Source: an uncultured Gemmatimonadales bacterium
Lineage (GTDB): Bacteria; Gemmatimonadota; Gemmatimonadetes; Longimicrobiales; RSA9
Length of the DNA stretch: 64,000 nucleotides
Reading direction: 5' to 3'
NCBI GenBank assembly: GCA_963708135.1
Contig: OY970192.1
Location: forward strand, 5,248,001-5,312,000
Shown here: positions 55,023 through 64,000 of the stretch, in pieces
How the letters are laid out: every line of letters begins with the position of its first letter
Numbering within the stretch: the stretch's first letter is position 1
Position numbers and translations under genes: made by a program
The notes under the pieces: generated by a model
Told to the model about the DNA's origin: nothing
The model's database searches: none
The model's input: only the letters and a program-made list of their open reading frames with translations

Positions 55023-56177
55023 CTATCCCCGCTCCTCCCGCTCACCGAACAGCTGCAGATAGCGCTCGAACGCGAATACTCGATACGTCTGCCTGCCGCT
55101 CGTCTCGCGCAGGATGCCGGCATCCTCCAGCGCGTTGGTGAGCGCGTTGGCGGCCGGCTGGGAGAGCCCGGTCACCTCCTGGACCCGCTTCACGTTGACG
55201 ATCGGCGTGCGGAACAACCCCTCGAGCAGCGTGAGCCCCGGCGCCGCGCGACGCCCCAGCTCCTGCGCGATCCGCTGCCGCTCTTCCTCCCGGAGCGCCA
55301 CGATCTGGCGTGCCGTCGCCGTCGCCTCCGTCGAGACCTCGGCGACCCCCTCGAGGAAGAAGGCCAGCCACCCCTCCCAGTCGCCGTTTTCCCGGATCGC
55401 CTGCAGACGGTCGTAGTACTCCCGCCGGTTGCGCTTGAAGAAGATCGAAAGGTAGAGGATCGGCTCGCGCAGCACGTCCTCGTGAACCAGGAAGAACGTG
55501 ATCAGCAGGCGTCCGACCCTGCCGTTGCCGTCCAGGAACGGATGCAGGGTCTCGAACTGCGCGTGCGCGAGGCCCGCCCGCACGAGCACCGGAAGATCGG
55601 ACGCGGCATGGAGAAACTGCTCGAGCTCGTTCAGCGACCGTTGCATCTCGTCCACTGGCGGCGGGACAAATCGGGCCGCCGCCGGGCTCGGACCACCGAT
55701 CCAGTTCTGGGACCGGCGGAATTCGCCGGGAGTCTTTGAGGGCTCGCCTCCACGAACTCCCGCCATCAGCCGGGCATGAATCTCCCGGATCAATCGGAGC
55801 GAGAGTGGCGTCTTCACCCGCTCGAGTCCGAAGCGGAGCGCATCGATGTAGTTCGTGATCTCCGCCACATCGACGCGTCGCTCGGTGCGCTCCATCTGCG
55901 CCTCGTACTCCAGGAGATCCACGAGCGACGCCTCTTTGCCCTCGATCTGACTCGACAGCACGGCCTCGCGCCGTACGTACATGTACACGAACAGGTCCGG
56001 GTCCGGCAGGATCTCGGCGGAACCCACCAGCCGACCCAGCGACAGAGTCGCCTTCTCGAGCAACTCCGCGAGCGCACCCAGCCGGAGATCCCCCGGCGGA
56101 AACCGTGCGGGAACGAACGCCCGGTAGCCCGCCGGTTGCGGGCGGAACACCCCGGCTCGTGAGGTCAGATCGGGCAT
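55023..56177 (-). CDS. Fic family protein with N-terminal Fic_N region and C-terminal HTH-like region
   Basis: EAVLSSQIEG and the catalytic motif HPFLDGNGRVGR. Confidence 0.95.
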   Translation of the reverse strand: MPDLTSRAGVFRPQPAGYRAFVPARFPPGDLRLGALAELLEKATLSLGRLVGSAEILPDPDLFVYMYVRREAVLSSQIEGKEASLVDLLEYEAQMERTERRVDVAEITNYIDALRFGLERVKTPLSLRLIREIHARLMAGVRGGEPSKTPGEFRRSQNWIGGPSPAAARFVPPPVDEMQRSLNELEQFLHAASDLPVLVRAGLAHAQFETLHPFLDGNGRVGRLLITFFLVHEDVLREPILYLSIFFKRNRREYYDRLQAIRENGDWEGWLAFFLEGVAEVSTEATATARQIVALREEERQRIAQELGRRAAPGLTLLEGLFRTPIVNVKRVQEVTGLSQPAANALTNALEDAGILRETSGRQTYRVFAFERYLQLFGEREERG

Positions 56178-56780: not shown

Positions 56781-56936
56781 GCCTGTCCGGCGCGGCGCCG
56801 CCACGCCCGAGGCTTGCCGCGGCCGGACGGTACGCGAACAAGCGGGGGCCTGGTGACCTGGCGATGTCGGCACACGCGCTGCAGGATGGGGGAACGAAAG
56901 CGCAGAGCCTTGAGGATCGCATGGAGGTCCAGCACC

Positions 56937-58094
56937 ATGGCCACACCCGCGTCCCCGCCAGCCCGCCGCCCCCCAGCGCCCGCGGCCGGGCCCCACCTCT
57001 TCGCGCCGCTCCGCGTCGGCAGCCTCGAGCTGCGCAACCGCATCATCATCGCGCCAATGTGCCAGTACTCCGCCGTCGAAGGCTGCATGACCGACTGGCA
57101 CCTGATCCACCTCGGCCATCTCGCCCTGTCCGGCGCCGCGCTGCTCACCATCGAGGCGACGGCGGTCACGCCCGGGGGCCGCATCACCTACGCCGACACC
57201 GGGCTCTGGTCGGACGGGACCGAAGCCGCCATGCGACGCGTCCTCGAGGCCGTCCGGCGCTGGTCCGACATCCCGGTCGCGATCCAGCTCGGCCACGCGG
57301 GTCGCAAGGCATCGCACGAGGTCCCGTGGAAGGGCGACGCGCAGTTCGCGCCGGGCGAGGAGAACGGCTGGAAGACGGAGGCGCCGTCGGCGATTGCCTA
57401 TCTCCCGGGCGAGGACCCGCCCGTGGCCATGGGCCGCGCCGCGCTCGCGCGCGTCCGCGAGGCGTTCGCCGATTCCGCGCGCCGAGCCGCCCGGCTCGGG
57501 ATCGATGCCATCCAGCTCCACGGCGCGCACGGCTACCTGCTGCACGAGTTCCTGTCGCCGCTCTCGAACCGGCGCGAGGACGAGTACGGCGGCACGCTCG
57601 AGAACCGCATGCGTTTCCCGCTAGAGGTGTTCGACGCCGCGCGCGCCGCGTTCCCGGCGGAGCGGCCGGTGAGCGTGCGGGTCTCGGCCACGGACTGGGC
57701 CGAAGGCGGGCTGACCCTGGAGGAGACGATCGCCTTCGCGCAGGCGCTGGAGGCGCGGGGCTGTTCGGCCATCCACGTCTCGAGCGGCGGCCTCTCGCCC
57801 ACCCAGAAGATCCCCGTCGCGCCCGGCTACCAGGTCCCGCTCGCCCGCGCCGTTCGCGCCGCCACGAGCACGATGCCGGTCGTCGCGGTGGGGCTGATCA
57901 CGGAGCCGGAGCACGCGGAGGCCATCGTCGCCAACGGCGATGCGGACCTCGTCGCGCTCGCGCGCGGCATGCTCTACGACCCGCGCTGGCCCTGGCACGC
58001 CGCCGCGCACCTGGGTGCCCACGTCGAGGTCCCGCCCCAGTACCTGCGCTCCCGCCCGCGCGGCTACCCCGACCTGTTCGGGTCGGGCGAGTGA
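56937..58094 (+). CDS. NADH:flavin oxidoreductase (Old Yellow Enzyme, YqjM/NamA-like)
   Basis: APMCQYS, IQLGHAGRKAS, HGAHGYLLHEFLSPLSN.R.DEYGG, PPQYLR. Confidence 0.93.
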   Translation: MATPASPPARRPPAPAAGPHLFAPLRVGSLELRNRIIIAPMCQYSAVEGCMTDWHLIHLGHLALSGAALLTIEATAVTPGGRITYADTGLWSDGTEAAMRRVLEAVRRWSDIPVAIQLGHAGRKASHEVPWKGDAQFAPGEENGWKTEAPSAIAYLPGEDPPVAMGRAALARVREAFADSARRAARLGIDAIQLHGAHGYLLHEFLSPLSNRREDEYGGTLENRMRFPLEVFDAARAAFPAERPVSVRVSATDWAEGGLTLEETIAFAQALEARGCSAIHVSSGGLSPTQKIPVAPGYQVPLARAVRAATSTMPVVAVGLITEPEHAEAIVANGDADLVALARGMLYDPRWPWHAAAHLGAHVEVPPQYLRSRPRGYPDLFGSGE

Positions 58095-58104
58095 CCCTCC
58101 GACG

Positions 58105-60729
58105 CTACTCCGCCCTGAGGGCGGCCGTGGGATCCGCGCGAATGGCTCGGCGCGCGGGAACGTAGCTCGCGGCCAGGACGACCACGGCCAGAACGAGCGG
58201 GGCCGCGCCGAAGGTGAGGGCATCCCGGGGGCCGATGCCGTAGAGCATCCCGGCCAGCAGCCGGGTGGTGAGCGCGGCGCCGGCGAGGCCTGCGGCGATC
58301 CCCGCCGCGGCAAGCGCGGCGCCCCAGCGCAGCACCAGCCAGAGCACGTGGCGGCGCGGCGCTCCGAGCGCCAGCCGGATGGCGTACTCCCTGCCACGCT
58401 GGCTCACCGCGTAGGCGGTTACTCCGTAGATCCCGACCGCGCCCAGGACGAGCGCGAGAGCCGCGAAGATCGCCAGCAGCCCGCTCTCCGATCGGGGTTG
58501 TGCGAGGGAGGCGGCCAGCAGCTCGTCCTGGGTGCGCACGTCGCTCACCGGGGTATCCTCGTCCAGCGAGGCGACGAGCCCGGGCAGCGCCCGGGCGACG
58601 GCCACGGGGTTCCCCCTCGAGCGCACCACCAGCCTCATAGGGCCCGTGGGTGCCTGCGCGAGCGGCACGTACAGCGCCGGGCCGTCGCCGCCGGCGAGGT
58701 CCGTCCACTTCACGTCCGCCACCACCCCAACGACCGTGCGCCACCCCTCGTCGAAGACCAGCTTCAGCCGCTTCCCCAGCGCGCTCTCACCCGGCCAGTA
58801 GCGCCGCGCCAGGCCCTCGCTCACGATCGCGGCACCGGGCGCATCGGCGCGATCCCCGGGCGTGAACGGCCGCCCCGCGAGGAGCGGGACGCCCAGCGCA
58901 CGGAAGTAGTCCGCGCTGACCGTCAGTCGGGCATCGGCCAGCGGCCAGTCCCCGCTCGTGGCCGGATCCGGCCGCCCCTCGATGAGGAAGACGCTCCCGT
59001 ACGCGTCCCCCCCGAACGGGACCCCGCTGCCGACGGCCACCGCCGTGGCGCCCGGCAGGGTCCCCACCCGCGCCAGCAGCCGCTCGTAGAAGCGCACGAG
59101 GTCCGGCTCCGCCGCGTAGCGAAACTGCGGCGGTGCCACCCTGGCCACGACCACGCCGCGCGTGCCGAACCCCGGATCGACGGCAAGGAGGCGCGAAAAG
59201 CTGCGGAGCAGCAGCCCGGCGCCGATCACCAGCACGACCGACACGGCGACCTGCGCCGCGACGATCGCCGCGGACAGCCGCTGCCGATCGCGCGTCATCC
59301 CCGCGCGTCCGCCGGCCGCCACGATGGCGCCCGGAGCCTGCCGTGACGACCGGAGCGCGGGCACGAGGCCGAACAGCAGGCTCGTCACGAGCGAGGCGCC
59401 GAGCGCGAAGCCGAGGACCGGGACGTCGATGCCTACGTCGCCGAGGCGGGGGAAGTCCGGTGGCAGCACATTCCGCACGGCGGCCACCGCGGAGAAGGCG
59501 AGACCGAGCCCGGCCAGACCACCGCCCAGGCCCAGCACCAAGCTCTCCGTCAGCATCTGCCGGACGAGGCGGCCCCGGCCCGCTCCGAGCGCCGTGCGGA
59601 TCCCCACCTCCCGGCGCCGCGCCGCACCCCGCGAGAGAAGCAGGTTCGCCACGTTCGCGCACGCCACCAGAAGCAGCAGCGCGACCGCACCGAACAGGAT
59701 GAACAGCATGGGCCGGACGTTCCCGACCAGACGCTCCCGCAGCGGCACCACCGTCGCACCCTTCCAGTAGCCCTCCGGCATCGTCCACGGCAGCAGCCGG
59801 CGCATCCGTGGCTCCAGGGCGGCGACCTCCTGGCGCGCCTCCTCCCTGGTAGCGCCCGGACGCAGCCGCGCCAGCTTGTGGAAGCCACCCGCTCCCCACA
59901 GCTCTCCGGGCGGCAGCCCCTGCACGACCGCGGGGACCCATACCTCCGTCGCCTCTCCGGGGAACCGGAACCTCGCCGGCATGACGCCCACGATCGTCCG
60001 GCTCACGCCGTCGAGCTCGACGCGCCTCCCGACGATCCCCGCCGCGGCCCCGAAGCGCCGCCGCCACAGCCCATCGCTGATCACGACCACGGCATCCGAA
60101 CCGGGCACGTCCTCCCCCGGCACGAACGTCCGACCCGCCTCCGGGCCCACCCCCAGCAGCGTGAACAGCCCCGTCGTTACCGCCGCCCCGGACAGCCGCT
60201 CGGGCTCGCCGGAGCCGGTCAGGCTCAACTCTCTCGCCGCGTAGCCTTCCACGCGCTCGAACGCCCGCACCTTCCCACGCATCGCCACGACCTCGCCCAG
60301 CACCCCCATGCCGGCATCCACGCTGACCACCCGCTCCGGCTGGTGGATCGCCAGCGGCCGCAGCAGGACTCCCTCCACCAGGCTGAACACCGCCGTCGTG
60401 CCGCCGATCCCCAGCGCGAGCGTGACCACGCAGGCCACGCTGAACAGAGGCGCCCCCCGCAGCGTCCGCAGCGCGTAACGGATGTCCATTGCCAGCTCCG
60501 CCAGCCAGCGGGCGCCACGCTCGTCCCGCATCACCTCCCCGTGGCGATCCACACCCCCGAACGCCAGCAGCGCCCGGCGCCGCGCTTCCACCGGCCGCAT
60601 TCCCGCCCGCACGTTGGCGTCCGTCATCATGTCGATGTGGAACCGGAACTCCTCCTCCATCCGCGATTCGGCCGACCCGCGGGAGAAGAGCAGCCACAGC
60701 CGCGCACGAACCGCGTCGTACCACCTCAT
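58105..60729 (-). CDS. ADOP-type duplicated ABC permease (MacB/FtsX domains)
   Basis: Permease-prefix [68 protein letters not shown]. Confidence 0.93.
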
Positions 60730-61058
60730 TGCATCTGGAGCACGGCCTCGAGACCCGCGACGAAGCGCTGCCAGCTCGCCAGCTCCTCGCCCAACGCCCG
60801 ACGCCCCGCCGCAGTCAGCGTGTAGTAGCGCGCCCGCCGGTTGTTGCCTGTCGTCCCCCAGTCGCTCGTCACCAGACCGCCCTTCTCCAGCCGCTGCAGC
60901 GCCGGATAGAGCGAACCCTGATTCACCTCCAGCGCGCCCTCCGAGATCTGCTGCACCCGCTGGCTGATCCCCCACCCGTGCATCGGAGCCAGCGAGAGCG
61001 TCTTCAGCACCAGCAGATCCAGCGATCCACGCAGTGCGTCGTTCTGGTTGCGCGCCAT
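60726..61058 (-). CDS. PadR family regulator of the ADOP-associated type
   Basis: [44 protein letters not shown] overlap with the permease. Confidence 0.95.
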
Positions 61059-61654: not shown

Positions 61655-62428
61655 CTATGTCCGCGAGAACAGGGCGAAGCGGCCGCCCTGCGGGTCCTTG
61701 CAGGCGCCGATGCGGCCGCCGCCCGGGACCTCCATCGGGCCGTGGATCACGGTTCCGCCCGCCCTCCGGACGCGCTCCAGCGCGGCGTCGAGGTCCTCGA
61801 CGTTCACGTAGTAGAGCCAGTAGGGCGGGGTGGTCATGGCGTCCGGCTCGAACATCGCGCCCGTGGCCACGTCCTCGGGCTCGTCGGCGGAGCGGAACGT
61901 GAGGTAGGGTCCCGCCTCGCCCATGTCGATCGTGCCCGCGTGCTGCCAGCCGAACAGCTCGGAGTAGAACGCCCAGGCGCTCTCCCGGCCCGTGGTGTGC
62001 AGCTCGTGCCAGCCCACGAAGCCCGCCTTCGTCCGGTCGAAGCCCGGCGCTTCGTTCAGGCGCTGGAGCAGCGCGATGACCGCTCCCTGCGGGTCGGCGA
62101 TCACGGCGAAGCGGCCCACCTCCGGGATGTCGGTGCCCGGCACCAGGACCGTGCCGCCCAGCTCCTGCGCGTGCCCGGTCGCCCTGTCAGCATCATCGAC
62201 GGCGACGAACCCCGCCCAGCGCGGCGGCACCCCGGCGCGGGCCTCCTCCTCGGGCAGCGGGCCGATCCCGCCGATCGTCGTCTCGCCCACCGTCCACATG
62301 ACGTACGGCTGCTCGCCGCCGCTCCACTCCTGCGTCCCCCAGCCCGTGACCTCGGTGTAGAAGGACCGCGCCGCCTCCCGGTCGGTGGTCCAGAGGTCGT
62401 ACCACACGAAGCGTCCCTTGCCGGCCAT
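61655..62428 (-). CDS. VOC/glyoxalase family protein, two domains
   Basis: FVWYDL..FYTEVTGW, GRFAVIADPQGA, WHEL, DPQGGRFAL; RBS AAGGAGG. Confidence 0.93.
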   Translation of the reverse strand: MAGKGRFVWYDLWTTDREAARSFYTEVTGWGTQEWSGGEQPYVMWTVGETTIGGIGPLPEEEARAGVPPRWAGFVAVDDADRATGHAQELGGTVLVPGTDIPEVGRFAVIADPQGAVIALLQRLNEAPGFDRTKAGFVGWHELHTTGRESAWAFYSELFGWQHAGTIDMGEAGPYLTFRSADEPEDVATGAMFEPDAMTTPPYWLYYVNVEDLDAALERVRRAGGTVIHGPMEVPGGGRIGACKDPQGGRFALFSRT

Positions 62429-62563
62429 GCTGCCCTCCTTCGTATCGGGATCGAGGCGGTCTCTGTGCACGCCTCCATCCATACGTCGAACGAGCCCGGC
62501 CGGCATCGACACGCCCTCCCCGATCCGCCGCCAGTCGCCGGGCGCAGCGCGCAACAGGCACGC

Positions 62564-63454
62564 TCAGCCGCCCGGACCCTGCTCCTGCGGCCCGCATGCC
62601 AGCGCCGCGACCTGCCGCTCCCACTCGCCTTCGTCGCGCGCCTTGCGCGCCCGGAAGTTGATGCCGAGCGTGCCGAACTCCGCCGCGCTCGACGCCTGCG
62701 GCGCGCCGGCGAACACGTCCGCCCGCCAGGTGATCTCGAATCCCGTGAATCCCGCGGCCACGACCGTGGCCTGGAGCTCCGCTTCCAGCAGAGCGCCCGC
62801 GATTCACCCCTTCCACAGATCGATGTCGCGGCGGGCGCCCTCGCCCACCGGCTTCTGCACCAGGATGTCCGCCAGCTGGAGGCGCCCGCCCGGCCGGAGC
62901 ACGCGCGCCATCTCGCCCAGCCCCGCCAGCTTGTCCGGAAACAGGTTCAGCACCCCGTTCGAGATCACGACGTCCGCCCATCCGTCCGGCACCGGCAGCG
63001 ACTCGGCCAGCCCTTCCCGGAACTCGACGTGCGAGGCACCCATCCTGGCCGCCGCCGCCCGTGCCTTCGTCAACATCGCCGGCGTCATGTCCACCCCGAT
63101 CACCCGCCCCTCGGGACCCACCATCTTCCCCGCGATCAGACTGTCGATGCCCGCGCCCGCCCCGACGTCCACCACCCGCTCGCCCCGACCCGGTGGGCCG
63201 AGGCTGAACGGATTCCCCGTCCCCGCGAACGACGCGATCGACTCCTCCGGCACTCCCTCGAGCCAGGCTTCCTCGTAGCGGAGGAGCCGCGCCAGCGGCC
63301 GCCCAGTGTGGAAGTGGAAGCCCCGCTCTGGATCCGCCGCCACCGTCGCGTACTCCTCCTGGATCGCCTCCCGCAGCCGCTCGACGTCGAGGCCCTCCGT
63401 CGGCCGCGCGACGTGGGGCAGCGTCTGCGCCGGAGCACGTCCCCTTCCTGCCAT
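62564..63454 (-). CDS. ArsM-like SAM-dependent methyltransferase, probable selenoprotein (in-frame TGA at 62804-62806)
   Basis: GNP..GERVVDVGAGAGID, VIGVDMT, DVVISNGVLNL; WKG-TGA-IAGALLE continues in frame for 79 more residues; SECIS-like hairpin follows the TGA. Confidence 0.85.
62776..62794 (-). promoter_or_regulatory. Candidate bacterial SECIS element
   Basis: GCTCTGCT-GGA-AGCGGAGC 8-bp stem starting 9 nt after the UGA, with G in the loop at +18. Confidence 0.65.
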
Positions 63455-63508
63455 CTCGACCTCCCGGATCCTGGCGTGGTCGGGCCCCCTCCCCGGCGGA
63501 GCGGCCCC

Positions 63509-63552
63509 TTGACGCCGGTGGTTGTTCCGCTACTCTATGGAGCATTGGAATA
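63509..63552 (+). promoter_or_regulatory. Promoter and imperfect palindromic operator of the ArsR-rhodanese gene
   Basis: TTGACG-16-TACTCT; TACTCTA-N8-TGGAATA overlapping the -10. Confidence 0.55.
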
Positions 63553-63568
63553 CGACGCAAGGGACGAC

Positions 63569-64000
63569 ATGGGACACCGCGAGCTCAAGGATCCGCTCTA
63601 TCAGCAGTTCGCCCGCATCGGCGACGCCCTCGGCAGCCCTCGCCGCATCGAGCTCCTCGACCTGCTGGCGCAGGGCGAGAAGACCGTCGAGCGGCTGGCG
63701 GAGCAGGCGGCGATGCCGGTGAAGAACACCAGCGCGCACCTGCGCGTGCTGCGGCAGGCACGCCTCGTCGAGACGCGGCGGAACGGCACGTTCGTCCACT
63801 ACCGCCTTGCCGGCGACGACGTCTTCGACCTGCTCCGCGCGCTCCAGATCGCGGCCCGGAACCGTCTCGCCGAGGTGGAGCAGGTCACGAACCTGTACCT
63901 GACGCGCCGCGACGCGCTCGAGCCGGTCACGGGCGAGGAGCTGCGTCGCCTGGTGCGGGAGGGTGGCGTGACGGTCCTGGATGCGCGCCCGCGTGAGGAA
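63569..64000 (+). CDS. ArsR/SmtB regulator fused to a rhodanese domain (3' partial; absent from the ORF track)
   Basis: MGHRELKDPLYQQFARIGDALGSPRRIELLDLLAQGEKTVERLA..NTSAHLRVLRQARLVETRR..HYRLA...VTVLDARPREE. Confidence 0.92.
   Translation, partial: MGHRELKDPLYQQFARIGDALGSPRRIELLDLLAQGEKTVERLAEQAAMPVKNTSAHLRVLRQARLVETRRNGTFVHYRLAGDDVFDLLRALQIAARNRLAEVEQVTNLYLTRRDALEPVTGEELRRLVREGGVTVLDARPREE

Follow-up and report, generated by a model that had tools for sequence, protein, structure and literature searches.

A predicted selenoprotein of the ArsM fold that lacks three of the four catalytic cysteines is probably not an arsenite methylase

What does a methyltransferase of the ArsM type act upon when a single ArsM thiol position is left to it? 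A gene near one end of the window (the whole stretch of DNA analysed, 64,000 nucleotides) raises the question. Four cysteines occur in most ArsMs (PMC8552651), and in CmArsM all four are reported to be needed for As(III), the arsenical being bound by Cys174 and Cys224 and DMAs(III) held by Cys224 alone (PMC6138428). The Bacillus CX-1 enzyme reportedly needs two (PMC6950371), and As(III) methylation with one Cys and two His has been reported for TtArsM of Thermus thermophilus (10.1101/2021.07.12.452139).

The probable selenocysteine codon and the lost cysteines

Under translation table 11 the reading frame stops after 216 residues at a TGA (62806-62804). The original prediction found the right gene but gave it the span 62804..63260, which is too short; the real gene is larger, running from 63454 to 62564. 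Its features are:

62564..63454, minus strand: ArsM-like SAM-dependent methyltransferase selenoprotein, 296 residues with the TGA read through
63302..63316, minus strand: HFHTG motif, in place of the first ArsM cysteine (Cys44 region)
63209..63232, minus strand: SFAGTGNP, residues 75-82, with Thr79 where CmArsM has Cys72
62942..62965, minus strand: ISNGVLNL, residues 164-171, with Gly167 where CmArsM has Cys174
62804..62806, minus strand: TGA codon of the putative Sec217, equivalent to CmArsM Cys224 and the sole ArsM catalytic position retained
62776..62794, minus strand: bacterial SECIS-like hairpin of 8 pairs with a GGA loop, 17 nt 3' of the TGA
62594..62641, minus strand: C-terminal tail helix ending in Cys287 (candidate resolving cysteine; codon 62596-62594)

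The two motifs on which the prediction was built, SFAGTGNP and ISNGVLNL, read as described; the 216 residues before the TGA hold no cysteine, and the sole Cys codon of the read-through frame is that of Cys287, in ALACGP. Alignment with CmArsM sets Cys72 against Thr79, Cys174 against Gly167 and Cys224 against Sec217, while Cys44 falls on Thr50/Gly51 of HFHTG. The N-terminal redox cysteines, Cys44 and Cys72, are both missing, and the arsenic-binding pair is broken, with Gly167 at position 174 and Sec217 at 224. The fold is nevertheless that of ArsM: Pfam assigns class I methyltransferase domains to the gene, and the structure model (pLDDT 95, from a 99-row alignment) has a class I SAM fold with ArsM-type architecture, its best fold match being CmArsM (4fr0, TM 0.65). 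By sequence and fold together, the best solved relatives are CrArsM, CmArsM and human AS3MT.

AGTG, ISNG and FHF are present in all 119 of the closest proteins, in which residue 217 is Cys in 63 and another residue in six, the remaining 50 being cut off. Because AGTG and ISNG are kept throughout, we regard the lost cysteines as neither chance nor decay; they are the mark of a wide branch. Compensating cysteines, which the prediction had itself named as contrary evidence, were sought in the branch rows and none is conserved across them; after position 217 the next commonest cysteines are at 99 (41 of 117 rows, within the SAM motif) and 172 (23 of 117).

Among the best 80 of 562 genome loci, 79 reach codon 217, which is TGA in 76, TGC in two and TGT in one, and the reading frame beyond it is conserved. 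A separate search of the phylum gave TGA in 24 and a Cys codon in five of the 29 best loci besides that of the source genome. All eight hairpin pairs form in 58 of the 76 TGA loci and five or six of the eight in the three Cys loci from the same best 80 of 562. In a covariation set of 37 sequences (36 of the 76 TGA loci plus the window), 92.9% of cells are paired, compared with 31-50% for slid registers, and there are 11 two-sided changes; none of 500 shuffles reached as much, although this test can be beaten by related sequences and the hairpin sits inside coding sequence. The source genome has selA, selB, tRNA-Sec and selD, all scoring over cut-off. From the exchange of TGA with Cys codons, the conserved downstream frame, the SECIS hairpin and the selABCD set, we infer that TGA217 encodes selenocysteine. 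A nonsense mutation or pseudogene is ruled out by the 76 TGA loci of 79, the conserved frame and the hairpin pairing. The selD gene itself (L027, C1:4174852-4175766) has one in-frame TGA and is probably another selenoprotein.

The original prediction also suggested that the Sec pairs with the tail cysteine. Among members with the tail helix, a cysteine stands at the Cys287 position in 26 of 27 Sec forms (window included) but in only one of 27 Cys forms, the Sec rows coming from genome loci and the Cys rows mostly from the protein search; a frameshifted locus (L082), one without the helix (L098) and a duplicate (L044) were left out. Three of the four Sec/Cys changes on the best tree go with loss of the tail cysteine, and a test of co-evolution, which has one independent pair on well-supported branches, is not significant. 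The tail is absent in 48 of the 76 Sec loci (from the best 80 of 562), one of them cut by a contig end, and a role for the tail cysteine as second thiol across the whole family is thereby ruled out. The suggested pairing thus holds as a co-occurrence, but within one sub-branch; the pattern fits a resolving cysteine and is not proof of one. In TusA fusions the tail helix is a linker.

Variants on this arrangement were seen elsewhere. Three Actinomycetota loci (L099, L100 and L106) have a cysteine five residues past the Sec (UIAGALPC), itself a candidate resolving cysteine, with a compensated SECIS stem. A second Sec sub-branch of the same phylum (L129-L142, L155-L162) has HFxHG, GVGNP and LWAS-U-IGG, with no tail and mostly without rhodanese neighbours.

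A branch outside canonical ArsM

The original prediction proposed a phylogeny to separate ISNGV from ISNCV clades. A FastTree analysis of 186 rows, built after removal of the three trait columns, contains a branch (support 91, not starred) that divides 116 of 118 ISNG rows from all 61 canonical rows. With IQ-TREE and 56 sampled rows, a 95/88 branch unites 25 of 26 canonical rows with one ISNG row; the query and the 28 main ISNG rows all lie elsewhere in the tree. The main ISNG rows therefore fall outside canonical ArsM, but just 52% of the bootstrap trees (unrooted) set the ISNG rows apart as a single group. The lone ISNG row inside the canonical branch, a neighbour in L097, is probably a second loss. 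It (L097:1164-2018) and P0295 represent a small lineage within canonical ArsM in which the counterparts of Cys72 and Cys174 have likewise been lost together, and the L097 gene lies just upstream of a gene of the main branch.

Both motif changes of the main branch recur together in more distant representatives, among which are Cys forms from haloarchaea and Alphaproteobacteria. For controls we took 20 canonical arsM loci, all motif-checked, from genomes of the same phylum with a second match; for 14 of the 20 a motif check of the second match confirmed a branch copy, so that canonical arsM and a branch copy occur together in at least 14 of the 20 genomes. On its motifs and its place in the trees, the cysteine-loss branch is wide, is found in bacteria and haloarchaea, falls outside canonical ArsM and is often present in the same genomes. 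The source genome has a canonical arsM of its own outside the window (L020, C1:2829918-2830750, minus strand), upstream of metallophosphoesterase and acr3 genes, with all ArsM cysteines present and an in-frame TAA at C1:2830409-2830407 that is either a real nonsense codon or an assembly error. A recurrent N-terminal fusion of DUF2652 to the branch methyltransferase was also noted (L095:3508-4734, P0174, P0175, P0180, P0183, P0188, P0141 and P0267), and most of these proteins end at the Sec position.

Family models place the query likewise. Against PRK11873 (NCBIfam NF008823) it scores 204 with a cut-off of 263, whereas all four single-ArsM canonical control proteins pass, with 316-399. The paper of Haft and Tolstoy (2025) is said to be the source of three selenoprotein models, NF047649 (methyltransferase/UXPK-star), NF041537 (ArsM/AhpD) and NF041536 (ArsM/DUF2284); the query is far under their cut-offs (206/460, 231/510 and 203/575, respectively) and has no second Sec domain. 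The branch-type protein P0293 scores 368 bits across the first 203 positions of NF047649, so that this model probably represents a different sub-branch in which these positions are also lost. As judged from sequence and predicted structure, the enzyme has the fold and probably the mode of methyl transfer of ArsM, and does not belong to canonical ArsM.

Sulfur-carrier neighbours and a divergent regulator

We compared up to 5 kb on each side of the 79 branch loci (from the best 80 of 562) with the same flanks of the 20 canonical arsM loci, identifying neighbours by Pfam from heuristic gene calls and counting as ars markers CxC ArsR, Acr3, ArsC and ArsP, and as sulfur-relay markers rhodanese, MBL, DsrE, TusA and YeeE. 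The ars markers lie near one of the 79 branch loci and 17 of the 20 canonical loci, and the sulfur-relay markers near 28 and none, respectively, a contrast that is overstated because the marker queries were drawn from the same loci and kin are not independent. At these branch loci, rhodanese of the ArsR-rhodanese type accounts for 20, MBL for nine, DsrE for eight, TusA for six and YeeE for three; OsmC occurs at eight of the bacterial loci and brings the marker total to 34. A further 20 branch loci, two of which duplicate earlier contigs, gave ars markers at one and sulfur-relay markers at six. A sulfur-relay marker is absent at 51 of the 79 (many of the contigs being short), and is present at 16 of the 43 branch loci of at least 8 kb. 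At the query locus, no ars operon context with an As(III)-type ArsR was found within the flanks read. The MBL neighbours score under the cut-offs of both Blh and glyoxalase II. The separation from arsenic and metal genes is not complete, which counts against a sulfur or selenium substrate: an ars operon abuts L148, canonical arsM is about 5 kb distant in L029 and L041, P0169 joins a canonical ArsM to a branch-type domain, and MerC, MerT and heavy-metal ATPases are present at a few loci.

Fusions give a similar picture. A TusA domain, TusA being a persulfide carrier according to PMC9774590, was recorded for 20 of the best 120 proteins and for three distant members; 15 fusions retain the carrier cysteine motif, and the longer branch proteins include rhodanese and thioredoxin-like fusions. 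A single-sequence fold model of one TusA fusion, P0014, has a pLDDT of 41. The haloarchaeal Cys forms are preceded by an OsmC gene in all three records examined. The rarity of ars markers and the frequency of sulfur-carrier genes near branch loci argue for a substrate other than As(III). The idea of a sulfur or selenium substrate, put forward in the original prediction, thus gains independent support from gene context, but that context cannot separate sulfur from selenium.

Other neighbours are varied. Genes for an ECF sigma factor and a zf-HC2 anti-sigma factor, often with cupin or OsmC, precede Cys-form members at L084, L097, L109 and L152-L154, and at L152 OsmC is flanked by two different branch genes. 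In the window a two-domain VOC/glyoxalase gene (61655-62428, minus strand; KbpA-like, under cut-off) lies 135 bp past the methyltransferase, and VOC genes are also found downstream at L052 and L075. Beyond it are ordinary neighbours with no evident link: PadR with an ADOP duplicated permease (58105-61058, minus strand), a Fic-family protein (55023-56177, minus strand) and an old-yellow-enzyme oxidoreductase (56814-58094, plus strand).

On the other side of the methyltransferase lie two further features:

63530..63556, no strand assigned: AT-rich inverted repeat resembling an operator; it overlaps the probable -10 element of each of the two divergent genes
63569..64000, plus strand: divergent ArsR/SmtB-rhodanese fusion regulator of 233 residues, extending beyond the end of the window

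The cysteines of the regulator are confined to the rhodanese motif CRGPYC. It lacks the CxC motif, which we take to be the arsenic site of ArsRs and which is present in those beside 17 of the 20 canonical arsM genes. The operator-like repeat is common to the loci of relatives. A matrix made from eight other loci picks 63530-63556 as the best site in the 5.4 Mb genome (27.5 bits, the next being 14.7), and of 14 held-out ArsR-rhodanese loci eight score at least 22, two score 18-19 and four score below 14, whereas all 20 canonical arsM loci score below 20; these scores are inflated, because the matrix takes in a probable -10 element and is itself AT-rich in a GC-rich genome. A generic sigma-70 scan of 62300-63700 found no promoter or terminator, and the -35/-10 pairs were assigned by eye and from relatives. 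From this arrangement we infer that the regulator controls both itself and the methyltransferase, and their pairing is therefore likely to be functional. In the literature searched we found no ligand for the ArsR-rhodanese family.

Candidate substrates and comparison with known systems

That the protein is not an arsenite methylase, as first predicted, is very probable. Of the four catalytic positions three are gone, among them one member of the Cys174/Cys224 pair, and no conserved cysteine compensates; the branch lies outside canonical ArsM, coexists with it and is rarely near ars genes. The argument from lost cysteines fits this conclusion, but their number alone is no proof, because TtArsM reportedly methylates As(III) with so few thiols.

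The fold, the predicted Sec217, the loss of the other three thiols, the branch-wide conservation, the sulfur-carrier context and the common operator-like site are shown by computation. Given these, the chances are about even that this ArsM-fold SAM methyltransferase handles reactive sulfur or selenium rather than As(III). Sec217 would take one sulfane sulfur (or selenium) from a persulfide donor, such as rhodanese, a TusA/DsrE carrier or a small-thiol persulfide. The bound atom would then lie one bond past the selenium, where arsenic sits on Cys224 in ArsM, pointing toward the SAM methyl group; for monovalent sulfur or selenium one anchor would be enough, rather than two or three, and Gly167 could give the room. 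Methyl transfer would yield enzyme-Se-S-CH3, from which a thiol would release CH3SH or CH3SeH (tail Cys287 in the sub-branch of the query, a cellular thiol or partner elsewhere), and thioredoxin-like or OsmC-like partners might re-reduce the enzyme. Persulfidation of the rhodanese cysteine in the ArsR-rhodanese protein would derepress the gene, and the net role would be detoxification of sulfane sulfur, sulfide or selenide by methylation. The scheme is a tentative one in its full form, in which a widespread Sec/Cys branch, sister to ArsM, receives sulfane sulfur or selenium from carriers and methylates it as an enzyme-bound seleno-persulfide, uses a resolving cysteine coupled to Sec, and has an ArsR-rhodanese of its own that senses persulfide.

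The enzyme might instead serve a late step of organoarsenical or antimony methylation, DMAs(III) to trimethyl species, complementing canonical ArsM, and to this we give perhaps one chance in a handful. DMAs(III) needs one thiol anchor, Cys224 alone in the scheme reported for CmArsM (PMC6138428), and that position is retained; the canonical and branch genes coexist, are fused in P0169 and lie about 5 kb apart in L029 and L041, an ars operon abuts L148, and branch-type proteins score well against two NCBIfam selenoprotein models named arsenite methyltransferase. Yet methylation of MAs(III) reportedly requires Cys174 with Cys224 (PMC6138428, PMC6950371), ars markers are near only one branch locus in each of the two sets counted (79, from the best 80 of 562, and 20), the regulator lacks the CxC site of the ArsRs beside canonical arsM, and the sulfur-carrier fusions and neighbours would go unexplained. 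Of similar standing is a general thiol-stress response acting on some other substrate, bound by or reactive toward thiols (an organic thiol, a persulfidated protein, tellurite-derived tellurium or a cofactor precursor), in which sub-branches may differ. The variety of partners, namely OsmC, ECF sigma/zf-HC2, cupin, DUF2652, a DsbA-like thioredoxin and second methyltransferases, would suit it, as would the VOC/glyoxalase gene on the same strand at the query locus, but no single such partner is as frequent as the rhodanese-type genes (20 of 79 loci, from the best 80 of 562).

It is improbable that As(III) is still the substrate, with the HFH histidines and a more reactive Sec (plus the tail cysteine) replacing the lost thiols. 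TtArsM is a reported precedent, His47 is kept in 101 of 117 branch rows, the nearest solved folds are all ArsM/AS3MT, and the in-frame TAA in the canonical arsM of the source genome could make a substitute useful; however, TtArsM is distant and its cysteine a different one, His49 is kept in just 55 of 117 rows, some Cys-form members have neither Sec nor tail cysteine, at least 14 genomes also contain an intact canonical arsM, ars context is lacking, and the query falls below the PRK11873 cut-off that all four canonical controls pass. Ping-pong methyl transfer through Se-methyl-Sec, or methylation of Hg(II), both raised at the outset, is most improbable of all: the strong nucleophilicity of Sec, one MerC fusion and one MerT neighbour are in favour, but 63 of the 119 closest proteins are Cys forms, the results lend neither idea support, and both are chemically unfavourable. 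In ArsM it is the atom bound to Cys224, not its sulfur, that faces the methyl group; a neutral Se-methyl selenoether does not readily give up its methyl group; and the SAM methyl is electrophilic, so that Hg(II) cannot accept it without a corrinoid.

'Arsenite methyltransferase' is the source name of many branch proteins, and 50 of the 119 close ones are cut at the TGA, so counts of arsM made by similarity may overstate the potential for arsenic methylation. If the substrate is sulfane sulfur or selenium, a regulated enzyme family would be added to volatile sulfur and selenium cycling, and one fold would switch substrate by changing its number of thiol anchors; the full scheme, if true, would give soil Gemmatimonadota, Chloroflexota and Acidobacteriota a previously undescribed way of forming methanethiol/DMS or methylselenium. 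Should the branch be ancestral, arsenic methylation would have evolved from it as cysteines were gained. The branch also offers a clean test of Sec use, the tail cysteine being kept by Sec forms and lost by Cys forms. No description of the lost cysteines, of the substrate or of a sulfur role for the branch was found in the part of the literature that was searched, and one may exist in print. The present analysis contributes the comparison of neighbourhoods with controls, the operator-like site and the Sec/tail-cysteine pattern.

Compared with ArsM/AS3MT (CmArsM 4FR0/6CX6, CrArsM 5EVJ), the query is alike in fold, SAM motif, ISNx motif and the Cys224 position, but has T/G, T and G for Cys44, Cys72 and Cys174, HFHTG, Sec at 224, a score under the PRK11873 cut-off, a sulfur-carrier rather than ars context, and a different regulator. 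TtArsM resembles it in having one Cys with His residues and a link to an ArsR/SmtB regulator, but reportedly matches characterised ArsMs at 25-32% identity across part of the sequence, and has a different cysteine and an arsenic-responsive regulator (10.1101/2021.07.12.452139). A Sec 'arsenite methyltransferase' with the motif UxxG is already catalogued, citing Fomenko et al. 2007 (PMC13188914, PMC9312934), as are three NCBIfam Sec families (PMC13188914). That selenoprotein (for example WP_011987699.1) has its UxxG Sec at the same site of an ArsM-like protein; the catalogue tables give arsenite methylation by name, and no mention of lost cysteines was found there. NF047649, NF041537 and NF041536 share with the query the ArsM-like domain with UxxG, but not its want of a second Sec domain. 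The net role proposed here is like that reported for MddA, MddH, MddM1/M2 and TMT1A/B, SAM-dependent detoxification of reduced sulfur (PMC12904073). By their description these are different families, of membrane, UbiE and UbiG types and about 200 residues, MddM1, MddM2 and MddH being of UbiG/UbiE type, and no mention of Sec or of descent from ArsM was found for them (PMC12904073); the branch enzyme, in contrast, would methylate an enzyme-anchored sulfane atom supplied by carriers.
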